Source: Fibrobacteria bacterium
Lineage (GTDB): Bacteria; Fibrobacterota; Fibrobacteria; UBA11236
DNA: 64,000 bases
Direction of reading: 5' to 3'
NCBI GenBank assembly: GCA_035275285.1
Contig: DATENA010000271.1
Span: forward strand, 53,354-117,353
A program made the position numbers and the translations under genes. Each line of letters opens with the position of its first letter. The first letter of the stretch is position 1. The notes under the pieces are model-generated. The model was not told where the DNA came from. It made no database searches and worked only from the letters and a program-made list of their open reading frames with translations. Positions 3,159 to 35,369 of the stretch are shown piece by piece.

Positions 3159-3357
3159 GCCGGAATCTCCCGTCCCCCCGGACCACGCCGCGCGTCCTGC
3201 GCGGGGCCCATGGGGTTCCCTCAAGTTAGGGCCGGACGCGGAAACGGCTTTGCGGGATTCGATTGGGTTTTTAACCATTCCGATTATATCGGCTGTTCCA
3301 ATACAGCGAAATCCTTTGAAGATCGCAAAAAAAAGCCCCCCATTTCTGGGAGGCTTT

Positions 3358-3433
3358 TGGAGCGGGTTAAGAGACTCGAACCCTCGACCTTCTCCTTGGC
3401 AAGGAGATGCTCTACCAACTGAGCTAAACCCGC
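3358..3433 (-). tRNA. tRNA-Gly (anticodon GCC)
   Basis: The reverse complement reads GCGGGTTTAGCTCAGTTGGTAGAGCATCTCCTTGCCAAGGAGAAGGTCGAGGGTTCGAGTCTCTTAACCCGCTCCA (76 nt, CCA encoded). Anticodon loop is TTGCCAA, and the T-arm is GGTTCGAGTCT. Confidence 0.9.
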
Positions 3434-3516: not shown

Positions 3517-5514
3517 TCAAGACAACCCCAGCATCTTCTTCAAATCTTCCTCGGAAATGACCTTCACCCCCAGCTTGTTGGCCTTTTCCAGCTTGGAGCC
3601 GGCCGCTTCCCCCGCCAATAGGAAGGAGGTTTTCTTGCTCACCGAGTCCGTGGTTTTGCCCCCGGCCTTCTCGATGAGCTCCTTGGCCTCGTCCCGGGAC
3701 CAGGTGGGCAGGGTCCCCGTGAGAACGAAGGTTTTGCCGGCCAATTCCTCCGAGCCTTCCGCGCCCTTGTATTCCAGGCTGACCCCCGCCTCGGCCAGGC
3801 GATCGATGAGGGCCTCCGTAACGGGGTTGCGGAAGAATTTGAAGATGCTTTCGGCCATGCGATCGCCGATTTCGTGGATGGCCAGCAGATCCTCCAGGGA
3901 GGCCGCGCGCAAGGCGTCCAGGGTCTTGAAACGGCGGGCCAGCAGGGTGGAGCTGGTCTTGCCGATGAAGCGGATGCCGAAGCCGTGGATCAGCCGGTCC
4001 AGGCCCCGGGTCTTGCTTTCCTGGATGGAATCGATCACGTTGGCGGCGGACTTCTCGGCCATGCGCTCCAGGTTCTCCAATTGATCCCGCTTCAGGAAAT
4101 ACAGATCGGCCACGGACTTGATCAGGCCGTCCTTGAGCAGGGTCTCCACCAGGGCCGGGCCGATATGCTCGATGTTCATGGCGGGACGGGCCGCGAAATG
4201 CAGGATGGAGCGGGTGACCTGGGCCGGGCATTGCAGGTTGTCGCAGCGGAGCGCCACCTCGTCTTCTCCCCTGGAGAGATCGAAGCCGCACACCGGGCAT
4301 TGCGCGGGCGGCTCGATGGCCTCGGCGTCGCGGGGACGCTTGGCTTCCACGACGGAAACCACCTTGGGGATGATCTCCCCGCCTTTTTCCACGATCACGT
4401 GGTCCTTGATCCTGAGGCCGAGCCGGCCGATTTCGTCGAAGTTGTGCAGGGTGGCGCGCTTGACCAGGGTGCCGCCCAGCAAGATGGGCTTGAGATGGGC
4501 CACCGGGGTAACCGCGCCGGTACGTCCCACCTGGTAGTTCACGGATTCCAGCACCGTTTCCGCCGCCTCCGTCTTGTACTTGTAGGCGATGACCCATTTG
4601 GGGCTCTTGGAGGTCCTGCCCAGCAGGATCTGCTGGCGCAGATCGTCGACCTTCACCACGACGCCGTCGATATTGTAAGGGATATCGTCGCGGATCCGCA
4701 GCCACTCGGCGCAGACCGCCATGATGCCGGCCACGTCCCTGGCCTTGGCCCGCTTGTCGTTGACGGGGAAGCCGGCCTTGGCCAGGGCGTCCAGGTTGCC
4801 CCAATGGGTGCCTTCCGGCTTGTCCACCAGGATGGCATAGGCGTAGAAATCCAGCTTGCGCAGGGCGCTTTCCTCCGGGTCCTTGAGCTTGAGGCTGCCG
4901 GCGGCGGTATTGCGGGGATTCTGCTGTTCCTTGCCGTAGGTCAGCAGGGAATATTCGTTGAAGGTCTTGAAGTTCCGCCGCGTCATGTAGATTTCCCCGC
5001 GCACTTCCACGCGCCCTTTGGGAAAGGAGGCCGGCAGTCTCACGGGGATGCTCTCGATGTTGCGGACGTTCCGGGTGACTTCGTCGCCCACGGTGCCGTC
5101 CCCGCGGGTGACCGCGAAGGCGAGCTCCCGGTCCTCGTAGACCAGGCTCATCGCCACGCCGTCGATTTTGAGTTCCACCACGTATTCCAGGTCGGCGGGA
5201 TCGATCTTTTCGGTGACCTGCCGGTGCCAATCCGCCAGTTCCCCTTCCGAATAGGTGTTCTGGATGCTGAGCATGGGGTATTTATGCTCGATCTTCCGGA
5301 AGCCCGGAGTCAGATCGCTGCCCACGGAAACGGTGGGCGAAGCTTCCGCGGCGAATTCGGGATGCTCGGCCTCCAGGGCGGCGAGCTCCTTCAGCTTGAG
5401 ATCGTAGTCCTCGTCGGACATGGGGGAACGGCCCAGCCGGTAATACTTGTCGTCGGCATCGGCGAGGACGGCCCGGAGTTCCCGGATTTTTTTCTGGACA
5501 TCCTTTTTGGTCAT
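3517..5514 (-). CDS. ligA: NAD-dependent DNA ligase LigA
   Basis: 665 aa with the hallmark LigA architecture: adenylation KxDG (ELKIDGVAMS), OB fold, a Zn finger (CPVCGFDL...C), HhH motifs and a C-terminal BRCT (GKTFVLTGTL). Confidence 0.95.
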   Translation of the reverse strand: MTKKDVQKKIRELRAVLADADDKYYRLGRSPMSDEDYDLKLKELAALEAEHPEFAAEASPTVSVGSDLTPGFRKIEHKYPMLSIQNTYSEGELADWHRQVTEKIDPADLEYVVELKIDGVAMSLVYEDRELAFAVTRGDGTVGDEVTRNVRNIESIPVRLPASFPKGRVEVRGEIYMTRRNFKTFNEYSLLTYGKEQQNPRNTAAGSLKLKDPEESALRKLDFYAYAILVDKPEGTHWGNLDALAKAGFPVNDKRAKARDVAGIMAVCAEWLRIRDDIPYNIDGVVVKVDDLRQQILLGRTSKSPKWVIAYKYKTEAAETVLESVNYQVGRTGAVTPVAHLKPILLGGTLVKRATLHNFDEIGRLGLRIKDHVIVEKGGEIIPKVVSVVEAKRPRDAEAIEPPAQCPVCGFDLSRGEDEVALRCDNLQCPAQVTRSILHFAARPAMNIEHIGPALVETLLKDGLIKSVADLYFLKRDQLENLERMAEKSAANVIDSIQESKTRGLDRLIHGFGIRFIGKTSSTLLARRFKTLDALRAASLEDLLAIHEIGDRMAESIFKFFRNPVTEALIDRLAEAGVSLEYKGAEGSEELAGKTFVLTGTLPTWSRDEAKELIEKAGGKTTDSVSKKTSFLLAGEAAGSKLEKANKLGVKVISEEDLKKMLGLS

Positions 5515-26367: not shown

Positions 26368-26499
26368 AATTCAAAGTGCAAAAGTCAAAGTTCAAAGTGC
26401 AAAATGAAGAAGGGGGAGGCGACGGCCGATGCCGTACTTCTTTGCGTGCGTTTGTCTTAAATTTCGACTTTTGCACTTTGAACTTTGACTTTTGAACTC
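26368..26499. repeat. Low-GC inverted-repeat element, copy 2 (same family as 15250-15375)
   Basis: Left arm ATTCAAAGTGCAAAAGTCAAAGTTCAAAGTGCAAAATGAAG. Right arm ATTTCGACTTTTGCACTTTGAACTTTGACTTTTGAACTC. The spacer is unique and about 50 nt. It lies between the GGDEF gene stop and the tadA start on the + strand. Confidence 0.8.
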
Positions 26500-26515
26500 C
26501 ACCCGAAAGACCACG

Positions 26516-27007
26516 ATGTTGCTCCCTCCCGACGACGAATACTTCATGCGCCAGGCCCTGCGCGAGGCGCAAGGCGCCTATGAAGAGGGTGAAGTGCCCA
26601 TCGGCTGCGTGATCGTGAAGGCGGGGAAGATCCTGGGCCGCGGCCGCAACCACATGGAAACCCTGCGGGACCCCACCGCGCACGCGGAGATCCTGGCCCT
26701 GGGCGCCGCCAGCGGGGCCCTGGACAATTGGCGCCTGGACGGCTGCACCCTGTACGCCACCCTGGAGCCTTGCCCCATGTGCGCCGGGGCCATCCTCAAC
26801 GGCCGCATCGCCAAGGTGGTCTACGGGTCCAAGGACAAGCGCCTGGGCGCCCTGGGGTCCGCCTACGATATCCTGACGGACAATCCCCTGAACCGCTCCA
26901 TCGAGGTGGTGGGCGGCGTGCTGGCGGAGGAATGCCTGGACCTGTTGCGGTCCTTTTTCCAGGAGAGGCGCAAGCGTCCGGCGAAATCCGCCCCCGAAGA
27001 AGGATAG
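26516..27007 (+). CDS. tadA: tRNA-specific adenosine deaminase TadA
   Basis: CMP/dCMP deaminase zinc motifs HAEILAL and PCPMCAGA. ATG at 26516; the ORF-track start at 26492 is a TTG lying inside the repeat arm. Confidence 0.88.
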   Translation: MLLPPDDEYFMRQALREAQGAYEEGEVPIGCVIVKAGKILGRGRNHMETLRDPTAHAEILALGAASGALDNWRLDGCTLYATLEPCPMCAGAILNGRIAKVVYGSKDKRLGALGSAYDILTDNPLNRSIEVVGGVLAEECLDLLRSFFQERRKRPAKSAPEEG

Positions 27008-27029
27008 GCGCGCAGGCGGGCGTCCAGCG

Positions 27030-27219
27030 CCGCCCGCACGTAGGCTTCCATGTCCCCGGGCCCGTCGACCCGGAAAGGCGCGAACCGCCAGATCTCCGGG
27101 TCGGCGCCGGCCAGGTACAAGGCGGGGGCATGGGCCATTTCCAACGGGACGAGCCGGACATGCCGGCCAGACAACCGGAGATGGGGATCGGACGGTCCGG
27201 GCATGGGAAAAAGGTGCAT
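27030..27219 (-). pseudogene. GNAT (RimL-like) N-acetyltransferase N-terminal remnant
   Basis: HVRLVPLEMAHAPALYLAGADPEIWRFAPF matches the Acetyltransf_3 N-terminal consensus (RLxLRPLxxxDAxALFxxxSDPEVxRY). The frame carries no acetyl-CoA-binding motifs and runs into the 3' end of tadA on the opposite strand. Confidence 0.3.
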
Positions 27220-27375
27220 TCCGGACCGGGGTGCCGCAAGCCTTGGGCGCCGGCCCGCCAATAGGTATATTGGCTCTGCTCATCCTGGAAGGCGCAGACC
27301 TCACGCAATTGACGCGAGCTGAACCCCGCCAGGACGAAAGTAGCAACGGTAGGCATCAACTCAATGTGCCGTGTC

Positions 27376-27475
27376 GAAGTCTGCCGCCAACCGGGATGAG
27401 CACCTCCTTTTAGAACATCCCGGTTGGCGCGCTGACCGGGATGAGCACCCCCTTCTAGAACATCCCGATCAGCGC
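27376..27475. repeat. Two tandem, near-identical hairpin units (13-15 bp stem, 17-nt loop) in the 630-bp region upstream of the hybrid kinase gene
   Basis: Unit 1 is GCCAACCGGGATG-agcacctccttttagaa-CATCCCGGTTGGC. Unit 2 is GCGCTGACCGGGATG-agcacccccttctagaa-CATCCCGATCAGCGC. They share the CCGGGATG / CATCCCGG core. Confidence 0.75.
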
Positions 27476-27641
27476 GCCGGCCGGCGCCTATCCTCCTCGC
27501 CGCATTCCGTTTTTCCTCTTTTGGGTTTTCCCCGGAGCTTTGGGATTCCATCCCCCGGTGAGGAATTTTTTTGTGCGGTCCGAAACGGAAAAAGAATAAT
27601 TAGGGCTTCAGGTCCCGACCCGGGTCCGCCGAAGGGGTTGA

Positions 27642-29579
27642 ATGGCGCTGGAAAGACGGAAACTGCTGCTTGTCGAGGATGAGGCCTTGGTGGCCCTGGA
27701 TTTGAAAAGGCGCTTGGAGGGAATGGGGTTCGAAGTCGCCGGGCAGGCGACCACGGGAGAGGAAGCCATCCAAAAGGCCCTGGCGATCCAGCCTTCCCTG
27801 GTCCTGATGGACATCCGGTTGGGGGGCCTGGTGGACGGGATCGAGGCCACGGAAATCATCCGCCGGCGCCTGGACGTTCCCGTGGTCTATCTCACGGCCA
27901 ATTCGGATGAAGCCACCTTGCGCCGCGCGCGCATCACGGAGCCCCATGGATTCGTCCTCAAGCCCATCCGGGATCGGGAATTGCGCATCGCCATCGAGAT
28001 GGCCCTGTACCGGTTCAGGGCCGAGGCCGCCATGCGCGAGAGCCGGGAGTGGTTTTCCGCCATGCTCAGCACCGTCAGCGAAGCCGTCATCGCCAACGAT
28101 AAGGACGGCGCCGTGCGGCATATGAACCATGCGGCCGAGCGATTGACGGGGTGGAGGGAAGAGGAGGCCCGGGGCCGGCCGCTGACCGAGGTGGTCCGTT
28201 TCCTGGATGAGTCCGCGCGCGCGCCGGCCCAGGAATCGGCTTCCGGGACCAGGATCATGGACCGCACCGTGGTGACCGCCCGGGACGGGGCCGTCCGCGC
28301 CGTCGAAGAGCGCTTCGAAACCGTGCGCGGCCTGGCGGCGGACGTGGAAGGAGGCGTGTCGGCCTTCCGCGACGTGAGCGAACGCCGCAACCTGGAAAGG
28401 CAACTGGCCCAGAAGCACAAGATGGAAGCCATCGGCCGGCTGGCGGCCGGGGTGGCCCACGATTTCAACAACCTGCTCACGGCCATCATCGGATACAGCA
28501 ACCTGGCCTTGCTGAAAGCCGGCGAGCGGGACGCGACGCGCGAAGACCTCTCCCAGATCAAGGAAGCCGGGGAAAGGGCCGCGGAACTGACCCAGCAATT
28601 GCTGGCCTTCAGCCGGCGGCAGATGCTGACTCCCACCGTGGTGGATCTGGGCGTGATGACCCGCAACATGGAAAAGCTCCTGCGGCGGCTCATCGGCGAG
28701 GACGTGGAGATCCTCACCAGCGGCGACCAGCCGCTCTGGGCGGTGATGGCGGATCTGGGCCAGATGGAACAGGTGCTCGTGAACCTGGCCGTGAACGCCC
28801 GCGACGCCATGCCGCAAGGCGGCAAGCTGGTCGTGGACACGCGGAACTTCCGCCTCGACGCGAACGCCGTGCCGCCCCAGGAGGACATGACCCCCGGGGA
28901 CTACGTGGTGCTGGGCGTCGCGGATACGGGCAGCGGGATGGACGAATCCACCCGTTCCCATCTGTTCGAACCCTTCTTCACCACCAAGGCCCCCGGAAAG
29001 GGCGCGGGGCTGGGACTGGCCACCGTGTATGGGATCGTCAAGCAAAGCGACGGTTATCTCACCGTGCAGTCCGAGCCGGAGCGCGGGTCCGTGTTCAAAA
29101 TCTTCCTGCACGCCACCTTCGAACCTGCCCGCCAATCGGCAGGCCCCCGGCCCCAGGCTCCGGCGCCGCGCACGGAGGGCAACGAGACCATCCTGGTGGT
29201 GGAGGACGAAAAAGCCGTGCGCAACTTCCTGCGGGATTCCCTGGAACGCAGCGGATACCGGGTGCTGGAGGCGGGTTGCGGGCAGGAAGCCCTGGAAAAG
29301 GCCGCGGAGGCGGCTTCGCGGGGTGGAACGCTCCCGGGCAACGAGGGCGAGATCCGCCTGCTGCTGACCGACGTGGTGATGGCCGGCCTGAACGGGCAGG
29401 AATTGGCGGAGGAGGTGCTCGGCCTGCTCCCCGGAGTCAAGGTGCTCTACATCTCGGGGTATACGAACCAGGGCATCGTCAACCGGGGTTCCCAGGGCGG
29501 CGGGCCGGACTTCCTGCGCAAACCCTTCACGCCCATGGAACTGTCCCGCAAGGTGAGGAACGTCCTGGACGGGCAGTGA
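27642..29579 (+). CDS. Hybrid sensor histidine kinase (REC - PAS - HisKA - HATPase_c - REC)
   Basis: N-terminal receiver domain (LLLVEDEALVALDL ... LMDIRL), a PAS region, an H-box (AHDFNNLLTAIIGYS), ATPase G-boxes (GSGMD, GLGLA), and a C-terminal receiver (ILVVEDEKAVR ... LLLTDVVM). Confidence 0.88.
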   Translation: MALERRKLLLVEDEALVALDLKRRLEGMGFEVAGQATTGEEAIQKALAIQPSLVLMDIRLGGLVDGIEATEIIRRRLDVPVVYLTANSDEATLRRARITEPHGFVLKPIRDRELRIAIEMALYRFRAEAAMRESREWFSAMLSTVSEAVIANDKDGAVRHMNHAAERLTGWREEEARGRPLTEVVRFLDESARAPAQESASGTRIMDRTVVTARDGAVRAVEERFETVRGLAADVEGGVSAFRDVSERRNLERQLAQKHKMEAIGRLAAGVAHDFNNLLTAIIGYSNLALLKAGERDATREDLSQIKEAGERAAELTQQLLAFSRRQMLTPTVVDLGVMTRNMEKLLRRLIGEDVEILTSGDQPLWAVMADLGQMEQVLVNLAVNARDAMPQGGKLVVDTRNFRLDANAVPPQEDMTPGDYVVLGVADTGSGMDESTRSHLFEPFFTTKAPGKGAGLGLATVYGIVKQSDGYLTVQSEPERGSVFKIFLHATFEPARQSAGPRPQAPAPRTEGNETILVVEDEKAVRNFLRDSLERSGYRVLEAGCGQEALEKAAEAASRGGTLPGNEGEIRLLLTDVVMAGLNGQELAEEVLGLLPGVKVLYISGYTNQGIVNRGSQGGGPDFLRKPFTPMELSRKVRNVLDGQ

Positions 29580-29624
29580 GGCCGCCGCTTCACGCAAGCC
29601 CGATGCAGGAGGAGAGATGCGCAT

Positions 29625-31169
29625 TTGCTGAAGCGTGAGCAATGGATGGATCTGGCGCGGAAACTGGATTGGAACTTTTCCTATGTCGAGGAAAAGGATG
29701 TCTATCCGGAGGAAGCCGCGGGAACCCCCTGGCTCCCCCAGCAGGCCTGGGCCGCTTGGGACGAACCCTATCGCACCTCCTACTCGGAGTACGTGAGGGG
29801 CCAAGCCGCCAAGGAAGCCTCGGTCAAGGCGGTCCGGGAGGCCATCGGCAGGCCGGAAGACTTCGAGCGCCTGCCGCGCCCGTGGCTCAGCGCGCTCAAG
29901 CTCCATGGCGCCACCTTGCCCCTGGCGGAATTCGCGGCCGTGATCGGGAACCTCCGGGCCGGCCGCTTCGCGCGCGCTTCGGCATGGCGCACCACGGCGG
30001 CTTTCGGGGCCCTGGACGAATTCCGCCATACCCAGATCCCTTTGCTGCTCATGCACGGACTGGTGCCATGGGACCGGCAATTCGACTGGACGCACAGGTT
30101 CTTCCATACCGGCAACTGGGTCGCCGTGGCCGGCCGCCATCTCGCGGATGAGCTCCTGCTCTGTTCCAATCCCATCGAATTCGCGGTGGGCACCAACTTC
30201 GTCTTCGAAACCGGCTTCACCAACATGCAATTCATCGGCTTGGGCTCCCTGGCGCGCCGGACCGGGGACCGGATGTTCGAACAGATGGTGAACAGCATCC
30301 AGACCGATGAGGCTCGGCATGCCCAGATCGGCCGGCCGGTGCTGGAAATCCTGAGGAAGCATGATCCGGCGTATGCGCAGCGCCTGGTGGATAAATGGTT
30401 CTGGCGGAGCTGGCATTTCTTCGCCGTGGTCACCGGTTTCGCCATGGATTATCTGACGCCCCTGGAGCACCGGACCGCCTCCTTCAAGGAATTCATGGAA
30501 GAATGGGTGCTGGATCAGTTCCAGCGCTCCCTGGACGAGGCGGGCCTGCGGAAGCCCTGGTATTGGAACGAATTCCTCGCATCCCTCGATCATTACCATC
30601 ACATGGTCTATGCGAGCGCGTACACCTATCGCGCCACCGTCTGGTTCGACATGGCGGTACCCTCGCCGGCCGAGCGGGAATGGCTGGCGGAGAAATACCC
30701 CGCGTCCTGGAGCCAATACGCCCCCATCTGGGATCGCATCGATCAGCGCTGGAAGGAAAGCGGACCGGGGGTGGAATGGCATACCCACGGCGCGACCCCG
30801 GTGGGCTTCTGCGACCTCTGCCAGATGGTGCTGTGCGCGGGCAGCCCGATGGCCAATTCGGCCCGGGTGGTGGGGCACGGAGGCCGGAAATACATCTTCT
30901 GCTCCGATCCTTGCAAGTGGATCTTCGAGGCGGAGCCGGAAAGATACGCTTCCCACAAGGACGTGGTGAAGCGGATCCTCTCCGGCGAGGCCCCGGCCAA
31001 CCTGCTCGAACTCATCAAGCATTTCGGATTGACCGCCGACGAGTGGGGAAAGGACGCGTACCGGGGAGGGTACCCCTGGATGCGCGGGACCGCGGGAAGA
31101 AAGAACGGCGGGGATGGCGACGGGGAGGGACGCTTGAACGGACGTCCCCAGAAGGTCCGGAAGGACTGA
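29625..31169 (+). CDS. tmoA: Soluble diiron monooxygenase hydroxylase alpha subunit (toluene-4-monooxygenase TmoA / alkene monooxygenase-like)
   Basis: Diiron ligand motifs DEFRH and TDEARHAQ, plus FETGFTNMQFIGL. Collinear matches to TmoA include WNFSYV, WDEPYRTSY, MDYLTPLEHRTASFKEFMEEW, KPWYW and the C-terminal KYIFCSDPCKWIFEAEPERY. A TTG at 29625 preceded by AGGAGGA is the likely start; an ATG at 29646 is the alternative. Confidence 0.85.
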   Translation: MLKREQWMDLARKLDWNFSYVEEKDVYPEEAAGTPWLPQQAWAAWDEPYRTSYSEYVRGQAAKEASVKAVREAIGRPEDFERLPRPWLSALKLHGATLPLAEFAAVIGNLRAGRFARASAWRTTAAFGALDEFRHTQIPLLLMHGLVPWDRQFDWTHRFFHTGNWVAVAGRHLADELLLCSNPIEFAVGTNFVFETGFTNMQFIGLGSLARRTGDRMFEQMVNSIQTDEARHAQIGRPVLEILRKHDPAYAQRLVDKWFWRSWHFFAVVTGFAMDYLTPLEHRTASFKEFMEEWVLDQFQRSLDEAGLRKPWYWNEFLASLDHYHHMVYASAYTYRATVWFDMAVPSPAEREWLAEKYPASWSQYAPIWDRIDQRWKESGPGVEWHTHGATPVGFCDLCQMVLCAGSPMANSARVVGHGGRKYIFCSDPCKWIFEAEPERYASHKDVVKRILSGEAPANLLELIKHFGLTADEWGKDAYRGGYPWMRGTAGRKNGGDGDGEGRLNGRPQKVRKD

Positions 31170-31180
31170 AGGACCGGGAG

Positions 31181-31435
31181 ATGCTGGTCCCCCTGTACGG
31201 ATTCATGCGCGGCGACTGCCTGGGACTGATCGTCCTGGTGCACGATACGGATCCGGTGGCCCACATCGCCGAGACCCTGGCCCAGGCCGCGGGCATGCGG
31301 GTGGTCCCGCGGCCGGGAGGCTCCGTGTACGCGGACGGCAAGCGCTTGGATCCGGGGCTCAGCGTGGCCCAGGCGGGACTGACCGCCTTGGACCGGGTGG
31401 ACGTGATCCCGGAGGAGCACGTGTGGCCTGGATGA
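31181..31435 (+). CDS. tmoB: Monooxygenase small subunit, TmoB-like (gamma)
   Basis: 84 aa. IVLVHDTDPVAHIAETLAQAAGMRVVPRPG ... GLTALDRVDVIPEE aligns with the TmoB pattern (VVVDLNDSMDQVAEKVAYHCVNRRVAPREG ... GLNPTEVIDVVFEE). Confidence 0.7.
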   Translation: MLVPLYGFMRGDCLGLIVLVHDTDPVAHIAETLAQAAGMRVVPRPGGSVYADGKRLDPGLSVAQAGLTALDRVDVIPEEHVWPG

Positions 31436-31752
31436 AAGCCGAAGGCATGGGGGATCTGTGGGACGGGGAAATGCGTCCGTGCCTGGTGCTGGGCATGCGC
31501 GTGCTGGTCCTGAAACAGGATGGGGTCGTCCATGCCTATGCGGACGCCTGCGCGCACCTGAAGGTCCCCCTCAGCGAAGGCCGCTTCGAAGGCGGCGTCC
31601 TCACGTGCCGCGCCCACGAATTCCGGTACGATGCCGCCACGGGCGCGGGACTGAACCCCAGGACGGCCAGGCTGGAACCCTATGCGGCGAAACTGGAAGG
31701 AGGCCAGGTGTGGATAGACCTGACCCTGGGAACGCCTCCGGCGCCTCCGTGA
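31432..31752 (+). CDS. tmoC: Rieske [2Fe-2S] ferredoxin component, TmoC-like
   Basis: Rieske CxH...CxxH motifs (CAHLKVPL and CRAHEFRYD). About 106 aa. ATGA overlap with the tmoB stop. Confidence 0.8.
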   Translation: MKAEGMGDLWDGEMRPCLVLGMRVLVLKQDGVVHAYADACAHLKVPLSEGRFEGGVLTCRAHEFRYDAATGAGLNPRTARLEPYAAKLEGGQVWIDLTLGTPPAPP

Positions 31753-32045
31753 CGGCCAAGGAAGGAAGCGGCGCGATCCGGGGACCGGGCCCGGTGCTGA
31801 TCGCCGGGGAAGCCTCCCAGGCGGTGCTGGAGGCGATGAAATCCCTCAACCGCAACCTCTCCGTGCTGGATAGGGGCTCCTATTGGCGCGTATCCTCCGC
31901 TTCCGGCTGCCGGCTCACGCGCGCGGCCGTCGAAAAGCGGCTCGGGAAACCGTTCCTCATGCCGGGCGATCTGGAAGCGCTGATGCCGTCCTTCTCGGGA
32001 CGTTTCCGCGTCACCGAAGAAGAGGCCCGGTGGGAGGAGGGATGA
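31749..32045 (+). CDS. tmoD: Monooxygenase effector/coupling protein, TmoD/MmoB family
   Basis: 98 aa. LTRAAVEKRLGKPFLMPGDLEALMPSFSGRF aligns with the TmoD [30 protein letters not shown]. The GTG start overlaps the tmoC stop in a GTGA. Confidence 0.7.
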   Translation: MTAKEGSGAIRGPGPVLIAGEASQAVLEAMKSLNRNLSVLDRGSYWRVSSASGCRLTRAAVEKRLGKPFLMPGDLEALMPSFSGRFRVTEEEARWEEG

Positions 32046-33019
32046 CGCCGCGCCGGACCTGGTGGAACCTGGAGAGTTCCGCGCGCAAGCCTTCGGACTA
32101 CGAGATCGCCTCCACGGATCTGCTGTACTATCCCAAGCTCGGCTTCGAAGTCAGGACCCCGCTGGAGGAGTGGCACCGCAAATTCCAAGCGGGGTCGCCC
32201 CTGGCTTGCGCCGATTGGGATCGCTTCCGCGATCCCGCCGAGCTGACCTATTCGCGTTACGTAGAAGCGCGCCGGGACAAGGAAATCTACGTGGACGGCC
32301 TCTTCAACGCCGCCGAGGCGACCGGTCACGATCATAAGCTGTCCGGAGAATGGCTGCAGCTGATGGATCGCCTCCTCTGCCCGTTGCGATACCCCTGGCA
32401 CGGGCTGCAGATGGCCTCCTCCTATCTCGGCAGCATGGCCCCGGGCGGGCGCATCGCCATCTGCTTCCTGCTGCAGACCGGCGACGAGATCCGCCGGATC
32501 CAGCGCATCGCCTACCGCATGCGGATGCTGATGGAAACGCGGCCGGGCCTGGGCGCGGAAAGCCGGTATTGCTGGGAATGGGAACCGGCATGGCAACCCC
32601 TGCGGCGCGCCATCGAGCGCCTCCTGGTGACCTACGACTGGGGGGAAGCGTTCGTGGCGCTGAACCTTTCCCTGAAGCCGGCGCTGGACGAAATGTTCCT
32701 GATCCATTTCGCCAGGGCCGCGGCCCGTTCCGGGGACGAGGTGCTGGGAAAGCTGTTCCTCTCCTTCCACGAAGATTCCCGCTGGCAAAGGGAGTGGAGC
32801 GCGGCCCTGGTGCGGATGCTGGTGGCCGGATCCCCCGAGAACGCGAAGTCGCTCCGGGAATGGATCGCCCGCTGGCATCCCATCGCCGAAACGGCCGCCC
32901 TGGCCTTCGCGCCCGCCCTGTGCGCCCCGGGACAGGACGCGGATTTCATCCGCGACGGGATCCGGGGCGCCTTGGGCGTGGCCGGCATGATGCCCAGGGA
33001 GGCGGTCCATGCGGCCTGA
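32042..33019 (+). CDS. tmoE: Monooxygenase hydroxylase beta subunit, TmoE-like
   Basis: 325 aa, all-helical, of typical beta-subunit size and in the position after the effector. The ATG at 32042 overlaps the tmoD stop in an ATGA. It lacks the full diiron ligand set, as expected for a beta subunit. Confidence 0.65.
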   Translation: MTPRRTWWNLESSARKPSDYEIASTDLLYYPKLGFEVRTPLEEWHRKFQAGSPLACADWDRFRDPAELTYSRYVEARRDKEIYVDGLFNAAEATGHDHKLSGEWLQLMDRLLCPLRYPWHGLQMASSYLGSMAPGGRIAICFLLQTGDEIRRIQRIAYRMRMLMETRPGLGAESRYCWEWEPAWQPLRRAIERLLVTYDWGEAFVALNLSLKPALDEMFLIHFARAAARSGDEVLGKLFLSFHEDSRWQREWSAALVRMLVAGSPENAKSLREWIARWHPIAETAALAFAPALCAPGQDADFIRDGIRGALGVAGMMPREAVHAA

Positions 33020-34730
33020 GGCGGGCATTCCGGAAAGCTCGGAAAGCGAGGCGCGCTTCCGCACCATGGCGGACTGCGCCCCCGTGCTCATTTGGATGGC
33101 CGGCGTGGACGCGGAATGCGTCTTCTTCAACCGGGGTTGGCTGGAGTTCACGGGCAGGCCCCTGGAGGCGGAACTGGGCGTGGGATGGGCGGAAGGCGTC
33201 CATTTCGAGGACTTCCAGAATTGCATGCAGGCGTACCTGGGCTCTTTCTCGGCCCGCAAACCCTTCCGCATGGAATACCGCATGCGGCGCGCGGACGGCC
33301 GGTTCCGCTGGGTGCTGGATACGGGCGTGCCCCGGTTCGAAACCGGCGGGATCTTCGCGGGATTCATCGGCTCCTGCATCGACATCACGGACATCCGCGA
33401 GGCCAACGAGGCCCTGTCGCGCAACGCCGGCCAGTTGGAGATACGGGTGCAGGACCGCAACCGCGAGCTGGAGGCCTCGAACCGGGAGTTGGAACGGTTC
33501 AACCGGTTGATGGTGAACCGGGAGCTGAAGATGATCGAGCTCAAGAAACAGGTGAACGCCCTGTCCGCGGAACTGGGACGCGCGGAGCCTTACGGGATCC
33601 CGGCGGACAAGGTTCCGGGCGGCGCGGTCCCGGAAGGGAACGCCCCGGAAGGAAAGGACGCGGCGGAAGAACTGGCCGCGCAAAGGGCCGCGGCCTTGAA
33701 CCTGGCGGGAGACGCCGAAGCCGCGCGCCAGAAAGCCGAGAAGGCCCAGGCCCAGTTCCGGGCCCTGCTGGAGGCCGCCCCGGACGCCATGGTGGTGGCG
33801 GATCGACGGGGGGATATCGTGCTCATCAACGGGCAGACCCGCCGCCTGTTCGGCTTCGAGCGGGAGGAATTGCTGGGCCGATCCGTGGAGCTGCTCATGC
33901 CGGAAAAGCCGCAAGGGGAGGGGAGGCAAGGCGGCCTTTTCAACCAGGCCAGGCTCAAGGAGATGGGAAGCGGCTACGAGGTGACCGCCCTCCGCAAGGA
34001 TGGGGGAGGCTTTCCCGCGGAAGTGTCCCTGAGCCCCATGGAGTCCGAGGACGGCATCCTCGTCATCGCCGCCATCCGGGACATGACGGAGCGCAAGAGC
34101 GCGGAGGAATCCATCCGCAAGTCCCTGCTCGAAAAGGAAGCGCTGCTCAAGGAGATCCACCACCGCGTCAAGAACAACCTGCAGATCATCTCCAGCCTGC
34201 TGCGCTTGCAGGCCGAACGCATCGTGGATAAAAGGGACCTGGCCATGCTCCGCGAGAGCGAGGAACGGGTGAATTCCATGTCCCTGATCCATGAAATGCT
34301 CTACCAGAGCAAGGACCTGGCGCGCGTGAATTTCGGGGGCTACGTCCGCAATCTCACCGCGGAGCTGCTCCAGACCTACGCCACCGGTTCGGCCCGCATC
34401 GATCTGGACCTGCAGGTGGAAACCCTGGAACTGGACATCAACCGGGCCATCCCCTTGGGCCTTATCATCAATGAACTGGTTTCCAACGCGCTCAAGTACG
34501 CTTTTCCCGGGACCCGCTCCGGCACCCTTTCCGTCCGGCTCGCCTCCGCCTCGGGGGAATTGACGCTGGAAGTCCGCGACGATGGCATCGGGCTGCCCCC
34601 GGATTTCCAGGAGCGCCGCAAGTCCTCCCTGGGCCTGCAGATAGTCGAATCCTTGTGCCGGCAAGTGGGCGGGCGGCATGCGTTCGAGGGGGAGAAAGGC
34701 ACGCGCTTCCGGATGAGCGCCCCGATCTGA
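33009..34730 (+). CDS. Cytoplasmic PAS-PAS sensor histidine kinase, HisKA_2/HWE-type
   Basis: Two PAS-like regions (LIWMAGVDAECVFFNRGW..., MVVADRRGDIVLINGQTRRLFGF), then an H-box IHHRVKNNLQIISSLLRLQ and an ATP-binding domain. No receiver or TM segment. Its start overlaps the tmoE 3' end by 11 nt. Confidence 0.85.
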   Translation: MRPEAGIPESSESEARFRTMADCAPVLIWMAGVDAECVFFNRGWLEFTGRPLEAELGVGWAEGVHFEDFQNCMQAYLGSFSARKPFRMEYRMRRADGRFRWVLDTGVPRFETGGIFAGFIGSCIDITDIREANEALSRNAGQLEIRVQDRNRELEASNRELERFNRLMVNRELKMIELKKQVNALSAELGRAEPYGIPADKVPGGAVPEGNAPEGKDAAEELAAQRAAALNLAGDAEAARQKAEKAQAQFRALLEAAPDAMVVADRRGDIVLINGQTRRLFGFEREELLGRSVELLMPEKPQGEGRQGGLFNQARLKEMGSGYEVTALRKDGGGFPAEVSLSPMESEDGILVIAAIRDMTERKSAEESIRKSLLEKEALLKEIHHRVKNNLQIISSLLRLQAERIVDKRDLAMLRESEERVNSMSLIHEMLYQSKDLARVNFGGYVRNLTAELLQTYATGSARIDLDLQVETLELDINRAIPLGLIINELVSNALKYAFPGTRSGTLSVRLASASGELTLEVRDDGIGLPPDFQERRKSSLGLQIVESLCRQVGGRHAFEGEKGTRFRMSAPI

Positions 34731-34744
34731 AGGCGGGAGCGCGC

Positions 34745-35296
34745 TCAGCGCGGAACGACGATGCCGGTGCGGGCGGTGAATTCTTCCAAGGTGATCAACG
34801 CCTCGCCCTTGTCCAGGCGCTCGGGATAGAGGATCCCTTCCAGGTGATCGAACTCGTGCTGGAACAGGCGCGCCGGGAATCCGCTGAACCGTTCCGTGCG
34901 CGCGAGCCCCCGGCGATCGGTGAAGGCCACGTCGATTTCGAAATGCCTGGGGACCCGGGCCCGGAACCCGGGGACGCTGAGGCAGCCTTCCCAGCCGGTC
35001 TCCTTCTCCTCCGAGACGCGCAGGATCTCCGGATTGACGATGGCGGTGGGTTCCATGAGAGGCGCGTCCGGATAACGCGGGTTCGGTTGCGGCGCCATGA
35101 TGAAAAGGCGGAGGGACTTTCCCACCTGGGGCGCGGCGATGCCGACGCCGAGGTTTTCCCGCCCGCAGCGGATCAACTCGTCGATGAATGCCTGGAAGTC
35201 CGGATCGGCGACGTCCAGGATGCGCCCGGCCTTGAAGGTCAGGCGTTCGTCCCCGCGGTCCAGCAGGGAAAGGGTCTTGATCGGTTCCACTCCCAT
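34745..35296 (-). CDS. def: Peptide deformylase
   Basis: All three Def motifs are present: GIAAPQVG, EGCLSVPG and HEFDHLEG. Confidence 0.92.
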   Translation of the reverse strand: MGVEPIKTLSLLDRGDERLTFKAGRILDVADPDFQAFIDELIRCGRENLGVGIAAPQVGKSLRLFIMAPQPNPRYPDAPLMEPTAIVNPEILRVSEEKETGWEGCLSVPGFRARVPRHFEIDVAFTDRRGLARTERFSGFPARLFQHEFDHLEGILYPERLDKGEALITLEEFTARTGIVVPR

Positions 35297-35369
35297 AATA
35301 TAAACAGTATAAACAGGCGCGCGCCGGCCCGGCAGCCCCGGGGTCCGCGCGGACCCCGTCGCGAGGGGC

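Follow-up and report, generated by a model that had tools for sequence, protein, structure and literature searches.

What are the two long hairpins that stand in tandem at positions 27376 to 27475 of a Fibrobacteria contig, within the 630 bp that separate tadA from a gene for a hybrid sensor kinase? The earlier note that drew attention to them treated the interval as a leader of a kinase/monooxygenase locus and offered several readings: a structured 5' leader or sRNA, paired operator sites for a regulator, or a REP-type element, with a loop resembling an anti-Shine-Dalgarno (anti-SD) sequence. We analyzed the whole 64-kb stretch of DNA (hereafter, the window) together with related loci, and we are highly confident that the region consists of the 3' end of ffs, the gene for the small SRP RNA, and of trailer units derived from ffs itself.

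The hairpin pair and the small SRP RNA gene

The tandem hairpin pair was confirmed as two 45-nt units with 14- to 15-bp stems and 17-nt loops that outperform shuffled sequences. The arms of the first hairpin (HP1; 27385-27398 and 27416-27429) are 14 nt long and 100% complementary around a 17-nt loop. The second (HP2; 27430-27443 and 27461-27474) has one C.A mismatch and again a 17-nt loop, and it can be extended to arms of 24 nt (27420-27443 and 27461-27484) that are 88% complementary. The units are direct repeats of 45 nt, placed head to tail and 84% identical. When each unit was folded alone as RNA, the folding energies were -28.3 and -33.1 kcal/mol, with z-scores of -6.6 and -7.4, and none of 200 shuffles was as stable. 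The 32-nt stem-loop pattern occurs at two sites only within the 64-kb window, where the shuffle expectation is 0, and no other stem-loop with a near-perfect stem of at least 13 bp and a sizeable loop was reported among the inverted repeats of the window.

Two other readings of the letters were tried and rejected. The open reading frames that cross the hairpins (27371-27682 on the plus strand and 26796-27551 on the minus strand) had no family match, and conservation of a peptide is impossible given that units have been gained and lost. Likewise, a Shine-Dalgarno sequence on the opposite strand (AAGGAGGUG) had no start codon at a usable distance, and the motif was not conserved.

An Rfam scan of the intergenic region by E value gave, for the hairpins themselves, only meaningless sub-threshold matches to microRNA-precursor models. 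Directly beside them, however, the Rfam scan suggested in the earlier note found a model above its threshold: in the window-wide scan, RF00169 (bacterial small SRP RNA) matched 27292-27389 on the plus strand with 42.8 bits against a gathering threshold of 40 (E value, 7e-6). This is the single RF00169 match in the 64-kb window, and its 3' end coincides with the start of HP1. The same model was found directly after tadA in all six relatives scanned with Rfam, at 39.9 to 45.1 bits; the model barely reaches threshold in this Fibrobacterota lineage.

The marks of domain IV are readable in the sequence: CAGG, a GAAA tetraloop, and AGCA are present, and CCAGGAC-GAAA-GUAGCAAC aligns to the apical region of the model. 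The domain IV sequence, whose loops would bind Ffh, is invariant across an alignment of 13 sequences. In the RNAalifold consensus of these 13 sequences, 36 pairs were found, 10 of them with changes on both sides. The terminal helix occupies alignment columns 5-15 and 119-129, that is, 27278-27288 and 27391-27401 in the window, and compensatory changes were seen at pairs 7:127, 8:126, 11:123, and 12:122 (U-A to C-G, C-G to G-C, and, twice, C-G to U-A). The SRP 5' strand at 27278-27288 pairs with 27391-27401, so that what was read as the 5' arm of HP1 turns out to be the SRP RNA 3' strand. We annotate ffs, a small (4.5S-type) SRP RNA gene closed by this terminal helix and ending in an ACC tail, at approximately 27278 to 27404 on the plus strand.

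A promoter-like element lies just upstream, at 27243-27271 on the plus strand (TTGGGC at 27243-27248, a 17-nt spacer, and TATATT at 27266-27271). The pattern CTTGG-N17-TATATT is kept in seven relatives (loci L082, L083, L085, L087, L090, L095, and L096) and ends 7 nt before the conserved RNA; a scan with the sigma-70 consensus gave no confirmation of the element. Because the motif ends 7 nt before 27278, the ffs transcript probably starts at about 27277 to 27278, without a leader.

The upstream gene, tadA (tRNA adenosine-34 deaminase; 26492-27007, plus strand; Pfam MafB19-deam and dCMP_cyt_deam_1), encodes a product 100% identical to a protein named TadA from a Fibrobacteria metagenome-assembled genome, and it is the conserved upstream neighbor of ffs. 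Between the two lies the truncated remnant of a GNAT acetyltransferase gene on the minus strand (ORF 26863-27261, overlapping the 3' end of tadA; homologous part, about 27010-27220). The remnant ORF itself had no Pfam match, and the fragment described earlier as a decayed GNAT gene is real: it shows 52% identity over 71 amino acids (E value, 1e-18) to the N terminus of an intact 281-amino-acid Acetyltransf_3 gene at the same position in L096. The accompanying statement that the intergenic region (27008-27641) is otherwise noncoding has to be corrected, as the region holds the SRP RNA gene. The annotation of the 630-bp "leader" changes accordingly: what lies in it is the SRP RNA gene, an essential one, of a Fibrobacterota lineage that has not been cultured.

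Anatomy of the trailer and maintenance of its pairing

The order of elements on the plus strand is S5 (the SRP 5' strand), core, A1, AGCACC plus spacer, B1, A2, AGCACC plus spacer, and B2. A1 (CCGGGAUGAGC; 27385-27398), the 5' arm of HP1, lies inside ffs as part of the 3' strand of the SRP helix, and the ACC tail follows it. The first loop, or linker (27399-27415), consists of AGCACC, the SRP 3' tail, and then UCCUUUUAGAA. B1 (27416-27429) is an exact inverted copy of A1, complementary over all 14 nt, and its complementarity to A1 extends to the positions of the A.A/A.A internal loop and the U.G pair in the true S5:A1 helix. A2 (27430-27443) repeats the SRP 3' end once more in direct orientation, with its own AGCACC tail at 27444-27449; it is followed by the second loop (27444-27460; AGCACCCCCUUCUAGAA) and by B2 (27461-27474), an inverted copy of A2 that carries the one C.A mismatch. 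Units 1 and 2 differ by two compensatory stem-pair changes (C-G to U-A and A-U to G-C). We suppose that the units would have originated by local inverted and tandem duplication and slippage.

The two hairpins would not both form in the complete RNA. In the fold of the whole transcript, the 5' arm of HP1 pairs upstream within the SRP RNA and not with the 3' arm of HP1. When 27280-27520 was folded as one RNA, 27280-27288 paired with 27393-27401, lengthening the SRP helix, and HP1 was absent; its "loop" was single stranded, as is also the case in the minimum-free-energy (MFE) structure of the full transcript, and the extended HP2 formed. The full-transcript MFE of -101.9 kcal/mol corresponds to the SRP helix, an 18-nt linker, and a 24-bp trailer stem, namely, the extended hairpin at 27420-27484 (plus strand) with its 24-nt arms, which is predicted once the SRP RNA has folded.

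Folding the RNA and looking for covariation in related genomes had been proposed in the earlier note, and the outcome is positive: the hairpins are kept in several relatives, with compensatory changes. The units of L082, L083, L085, L087, and L090 fold as hairpins. In an alignment of ten units, 80.5% of the cells pair, against 31 to 45% when the partner is slid by 1 to 3 columns, and four pairs change on both sides (10 cells), giving a covariation score reached by 5 of 500 shuffles; as the units are related by recent duplication, these numbers are not probabilities. The non-Watson-Crick cells comprise 13 G.U pairs on the ffs strand and 6 C.A (which correspond to G.U on the other strand), a strand asymmetry that is modest and, for the same reason, is not to be read as a probability. 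In L087, the SRP terminal helix is altered (CCGGGAUG to CUGAGGUG; strands CAUCUCGG / CUGAGGUG), and each of the three units downstream contains the new sequence along with its complement. This pairing pattern favors structure in the plus-strand RNA, and the hairpins are more likely to be an RNA-level feature than a protein-binding site.

Relatives and alternative explanations

The window derives from a metagenome, and its kinase is found on an ENA contig as well. Relatives were collected by a TadA protein search followed by contig look-ups and by scanning metagenomes for a 24-nt motif of the SRP core, which gave 13 distinct loci in all. TadA loci from GTDB species representatives showed at most 62% identity and came from many phyla; an Rfam scan of 40 of them found a tRNA after tadA, or a large SRP RNA in two Bacillota, and was uninformative on the hairpins. 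In the TadA-derived loci that cover the upstream genes (L082, L083, L085, L087, and L093 to L095), the gene order is LptFG-GGDEF-tadA-ffs.

Between zero and three units are present in the relatives, and the units are limited to one sub-lineage. L085 carries a pair of good units, identical in their loops, along with a third that has decayed; L087 has three units whose loops differ only in the length of a T run; L082 has one unit and one degenerate unit; the units of L083 and L090 are degenerate; and a remnant is left in L095. In the fairly close relatives L093, L094, and L096, there is no unit and no substitute structure, and ffs runs at its 3' end straight into the stop codon of def, which is convergent. 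Units are likewise missing from L089, L091, and L092, which are more distantly related, the SRP helix of L092 being followed directly by UUUUAUU, and ffs of Escherichia coli has none. The same distribution emerged when A-like and B-like 14-mers were counted in a uniform way. The loops themselves (CACCUCCUU in unit 1, CACCCCCUU in unit 2, CACCCACAG in L082, CACCUGGAA in L085, CACCUUUUU in L087, and CACCCAAGA in L090) differ; of the first loop, only AGCACC and a loose TTAGA/TTGAC motif are found again in relatives.

Downstream, def directly follows ffs in L085, L087, L093, L094, and L096. In the window, 7.3 kb (27642-34730) lie between the ffs trailer and def, and the genes called there are kinases and monooxygenase subunits, beginning with the hybrid sensor kinase (RR-PAS-HisKA-HATPase-RR; 27642-29579, plus strand). 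The ancestral arrangement is ffs and then def, and the 7.3 kb are an insertion in the window. Upstream of the kinase, a promoter-like block at 27565-27612 on the plus strand (TTTTTTGTGCGG...GGAAAAAGAATAATTA) is conserved in an alignment with L082, L090, and L095; it may act as the kinase promoter and is separate from the hairpin element.

These comparisons bear directly on whether the hairpins serve the kinase/monooxygenase operon as a DNA operator, a 5' leader, or an sRNA, including an anti-SD-like loop that would sequester a ribosome-binding site. The kinase does start 170 nt downstream of the element and is read from the same strand, and the loop of unit 1 contains CACCUCCUU. However, in L085 and L087 the units stand before the convergent def with no kinase at all, whereas L095 has the same kinase and monooxygenase and yet its units have decayed to a remnant. 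Since the units are present whether the next gene is the kinase or the convergent def, they belong to ffs. Moreover, the kinase has its own conserved block about 30 to 80 nt before its start, and the spacer between hairpins and block, ranging from about 40 to about 170 nt, is not conserved. Half-sites of 14 bp that lie 17 bp apart and covary with an RNA helix are unlike operators; indeed, the arms covary with the SRP terminal helix across species, for which a protein-binding site offers no reason, so that the paired-operator interpretation falls. Nor does the anti-SD-like (16S 3'-end-like) loop survive comparison, because only CACC, belonging to the SRP 3' tail, is conserved, CCUCC is absent from the loops of all relatives, and the motif is not kept even in unit 2 (CACCCCCUU). 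Of the proposed structured 5' leader or sRNA of the kinase locus, the RNA structure stands, as it is kept in relatives, and the assignment to the kinase does not, as units follow ffs before def. To the extent that comparative sequence data can refute it, the kinase leader/operator reading is refuted, and we regard it as highly improbable. The hairpins should not be taken as regulation of the aromatic monooxygenase locus.

It is scarcely credible that the element is a member of a dispersed REP/BIME- or MITE-like palindrome family that landed next to ffs. Tandem GC-rich imperfect palindromes in an intergenic position at a gene 3' end do recall such families, but no further copy was found in the 64-kb window even with three mismatches allowed, similar stem-loops are absent elsewhere in the window, and the exact loop/stem pattern (ATGAGCACCNCCTTNTAGAACAT) had 0 matches in genome and metagenome contig collections. 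The sequence of the arms is that of the neighboring ffs 3' strand and tracks ffs across species. The REP-type interpretation is thus contradicted by units that copy the end of the adjacent gene.

Another explanation starts from ffs as a site of integration, with the duplicated ffs ends being att-type repeats left by integrating elements and the kinase/monooxygenase block having entered there. The small SRP RNA gene is a documented attachment site: phage phiEf11 has its attachment core of 27 nt within ffs (PMC12540744), and ffs is also the homing target of type I-F3b CRISPR-associated Tn7-like transposons (CASTs; PMC11406308). In this light, the 7.3 kb before def in the window, compared with the adjacency of ffs and def in other relatives, could be an inserted element, and there is a weak ffs-end-like string (TTCCGGATGAGCGCCCC) at 34705-34721, 24 nt from the def stop. 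This string, however, scores 25 in a Smith-Waterman comparison against background values of 24 and 23 and codes for a conserved HATPase_c end, and the shorter insertions of L082 and L090 have no far-end remnant. L085 and L087 carry units with nothing inserted, no integrase or transposase domain was found in the called genes of the inserted block, and an att duplication would leave the inverted copies B1 and B2 unexplained. An IMG/VR contig that lacks the SRP core does match the ffs end exactly over 21 nt, but the match lies inside an unannotated ORF of 659 amino acids, and a scan of the 10 largest ORFs in 14.6 kb of that locus found no integrase; the match is probably due to chance. We consider the att explanation weakly refuted and quite unlikely.

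A serious rival to a 3'-end role is that the units are a neutral by-product of duplication, and we give this an appreciable chance of being correct. The palindromic ffs end would be prone to snap-back or template-switch errors and to slippage, the resulting copies would be functionless and tolerated in a gene-free spacer, and the covariation would arise because the SRP RNA end was recently copied or served as donor in gene conversion. Such an origin accords with the presence of zero to three units among relatives whose TadA proteins are 78 to 92% identical, with the stages of decay in L082, L083, L090, and L095, and with the lack of units or any substitute in L093, L094, and L096. Units are also most alike within one genome (the L085 loops are identical, and those of L087 differ in the T run), and the exact complementarity of B1 opposite the A.A internal loop is what fresh copying gives. 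On the other hand, units 1 and 2 of the window differ at two stem pairs on both sides with pairing kept, G.U pairs are biased to the transcribed strand (13 versus 6), and hairpins persist in at least five diverged genomes despite fully diverged loops.

Possible role of the trailer and comparison with known systems

We favor, as rather probable, the reading in which the region is the ffs 3' end with a self-copied trailer that takes part in 3'-end formation of the ffs transcript; the most likely role of the units, we infer, is termination, insulation, or RNase III-type processing at that end. The units would act on the ffs transcript as follows. The SRP helix would close first; the trailer would then fold into a single stem of 20 to 24 bp (27420-27484), and this stem would help to set the 3' end of the SRP RNA precursor. 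It might do so by termination or pausing that needs no U tract, thereby insulating the next gene, or by offering the stem to an RNase III-type cut, with exonucleases then trimming the RNA as far as the SRP helix.

The hairpins begin within and directly after the ffs 3' end, that is, at the 3' end of a transcription unit, as terminators do. The lowest-energy folds of L083, L085, and L090 keep the SRP terminal helix, and trailer stems of 20 to 24 bp, comparable to that of the window, occur in L085 and L087. In L082 and L087, an alternative fold in which A1 pairs with a B-type segment farther downstream (B1 in the case of L082) is better by 1 to 5 kcal/mol. The predicted trailer stem would provide at least about 20 bp of near-continuous double-stranded RNA flanking the mature RNA, as in an RNase III processing stem. 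The pattern of a classic intrinsic terminator is not matched: no terminator-like site was called at 27385-27490, there is no U tract (the sequences after the stems are CGCGCUGACC and CGCCUAUCCUCC), and the loops of 17 nt are longer than the short loops of about 3 to 8 nt expected of terminators. The same genome does have a classic terminator after a tRNA at 3361-3433, with a 5- to 6-bp stem, a 7-nt loop, and a T8 run. Since L093, L094, L096, and the distant relatives have no units, any function of the units is dispensable.

More elaborate possibilities can be envisaged, although we hold them to be unlikely. The trailer units might constitute a functional, self-templated 3'-end cassette, in which each unit would mimic the closed SRP end, with the 3' strand and its ACC tail pairing to a stand-in for the 5' strand, so that the enzyme or enzymes that recognize or mature the true SRP end would also act on the trailer. 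Or they might form a switch in which the 5' strand would choose among alternative 3' strands, coupling SRP RNA maturation to downstream read-through. In a related view, the palindromic ffs end would be a recombination hot spot that brought in the kinase/monooxygenase block. We know of no description of a device of this kind, made from copies of the end of the stable RNA itself.

What the locus presents is a common housekeeping RNA gene whose tail is slightly unusual. It is a clean case of a stable-RNA 3' trailer assembled from copies of the gene's end, both inverted and tandem, that have been gained and lost rapidly among close relatives. If the copies do act in termination or RNase III processing as we favor, the locus would exemplify the de novo origin of stable-RNA 3'-end signals by local duplication; if the copies are functionless, palindrome-driven tandem duplication would here be mimicking "conserved structure."

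The gene itself resembles the E. coli-type 4.5S RNA described by RF00169: one long hairpin with a GAAA (GNRA) tetraloop and CAGG/AGCA loops, a terminal helix in which the 5' and 3' ends pair, and a short 3' tail of the ACC type. It differs in a score barely above threshold (42.8 versus 40), in a terminal helix a few pairs longer than that of E. coli, and in the self-complementary trailing units, which E. coli lacks. With enterobacterial REP/BIME elements, the trailer shares imperfect tandem palindromes in alternating orientation, a 3' intergenic position, and the ability to stabilize an upstream RNA; REPs, however, occur in hundreds of dispersed copies with a family consensus, whereas the element here is confined to a single locus and comes from the end of its neighbor. 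The attachment sites of phiEf11 (attB; PMC12540744) and of the I-F3b CASTs (PMC11406308) are similar in the direct repeat of the 3' part of ffs and in the variable gene content downstream. Here, in contrast, there is no integrase or transposase, the repeats lie 45 nt apart with nothing between them and each with an inverted partner, and units are present where nothing has been inserted.

The closest parallels concern the 3' ends of stable RNAs. In Bacillus subtilis, the SRP RNA (scRNA) arises from a longer precursor, which Bs-RNase III cuts at sites on both strands of a stem (PMC1935012). The likeness lies in an SRP RNA with extra 3' sequence and a long double-stranded stem as a candidate substrate. 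The stem cleaved in B. subtilis is formed from the 5' and 3' flanks of the precursor, whereas the stem here is wholly in the 3' trailer; the promoter position here would leave essentially no 5' leader, and cleavage is a prediction. Intrinsic or tandem terminators after stable-RNA genes likewise place tandem GC-rich stem-loops right behind a highly expressed stable-RNA gene and before the next transcription unit; the present trailer departs from them in having no U tract, loops of 17 nt, and stems of 14 to 24 bp. Trailer stem-loops of stable-RNA genes are known, and what is new in this locus is that the trailer is built from the gene's own end and varies in copy number.

Gene block between the ffs trailer and def

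Between the ffs trailer (the two tandem hairpins at 27385-27484, built from the 3' end of the small SRP RNA gene and copies of it) and the convergent def gene (34745-35296) lies a 7.3-kb block (27642-34730), which comprises genes for a hybrid kinase, a multicomponent monooxygenase of the toluene/phenol type, and a HisKA_2 kinase. In five related Fibrobacterota loci (L085, L087, L093, L094, and L096), def is the next gene after ffs, and in two others (L082 and L090) a shorter kinase stands there alone. The hybrid kinase is preceded by a conserved block (27565-27641; TTTTTTGTGCGG..GGAAAAAGAATAATTA, then AAGGGGTTGAATG), which alignment showed to be common to the window, L082, and L090 and partly present in L095. 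This stretch resembles a promoter and ribosome-binding site belonging to the kinase itself.

Sequences resembling the ffs end

A rival reading, considered unlikely, holds that the duplicated ffs ends were left by integrating elements. No mobility gene was seen among the genes called in the 7.3-kb block (27642-34730). At its far border, 15 to 40 nt from the def stop codon, TTCCGGATGAGCGCCCCGATCTGA (34705-34730) resembles the copied ffs 3' end plus the loop; it is the top non-self match in the window by a slim margin (score of 25 versus 24 and 23), and the same stretch codes for GTRFRMSAPI, the C-terminal residues of a HATPase_c domain. The SRP RNA 3' end (CCGCCAACCGGGATGAGCACC) also has a 21-nt exact match in a viral contig, L099 (IMG/VR UViG_3300045952_000180; positions 4937-4957), located within a 659-amino-acid open reading frame (ORF) without an assigned function and near HNH endonuclease genes. 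The SRP core is absent beside this match, and a scan of the 10 largest ORFs in 14.6 kb of L099 detected no integrase. The viral match is probably due to chance.

Two short, perfect GC palindromes were also observed: GCGCCGGCCGGCGC (27474-27487), directly 3' of hairpin 2 and forming part of its extended stem, and CGGGGTCCGCGCGGACCCCG (35339-35358), between def and an MR_MLE gene.

Neighborhood of tadA and stable RNA genes

A truncated GNAT acetyltransferase gene (26863-27261, minus strand) lies between tadA and ffs. In protein comparison, this remnant aligns to only the N-terminal ~71 residues of its L096 counterpart (52% identity; E value of 1e-18), where an intact 281-amino-acid acetyltransferase gene occupies the same position. 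L082 carries a 50-amino-acid ORF at this position, and another relative has a 111-amino-acid Acetyltransf_3 gene.

A tRNA gene followed by an intrinsic terminator (3336-3433, minus strand; GCCUCCC-AGAAAUG-GGGGGC plus U8) provides a textbook example, which indicates that classic terminators, unlike the ffs trailer, are in use in this lineage. Among 40 tadA loci from other phyla (L003-L042), a tRNA of 85 to 91 nt lies within ~150 nt 3' of tadA in at least 11, and two Bacillota loci (L018 and L032) carry a large SRP RNA gene after tadA. Thus, a stable-RNA gene after tadA is a recurrent arrangement.
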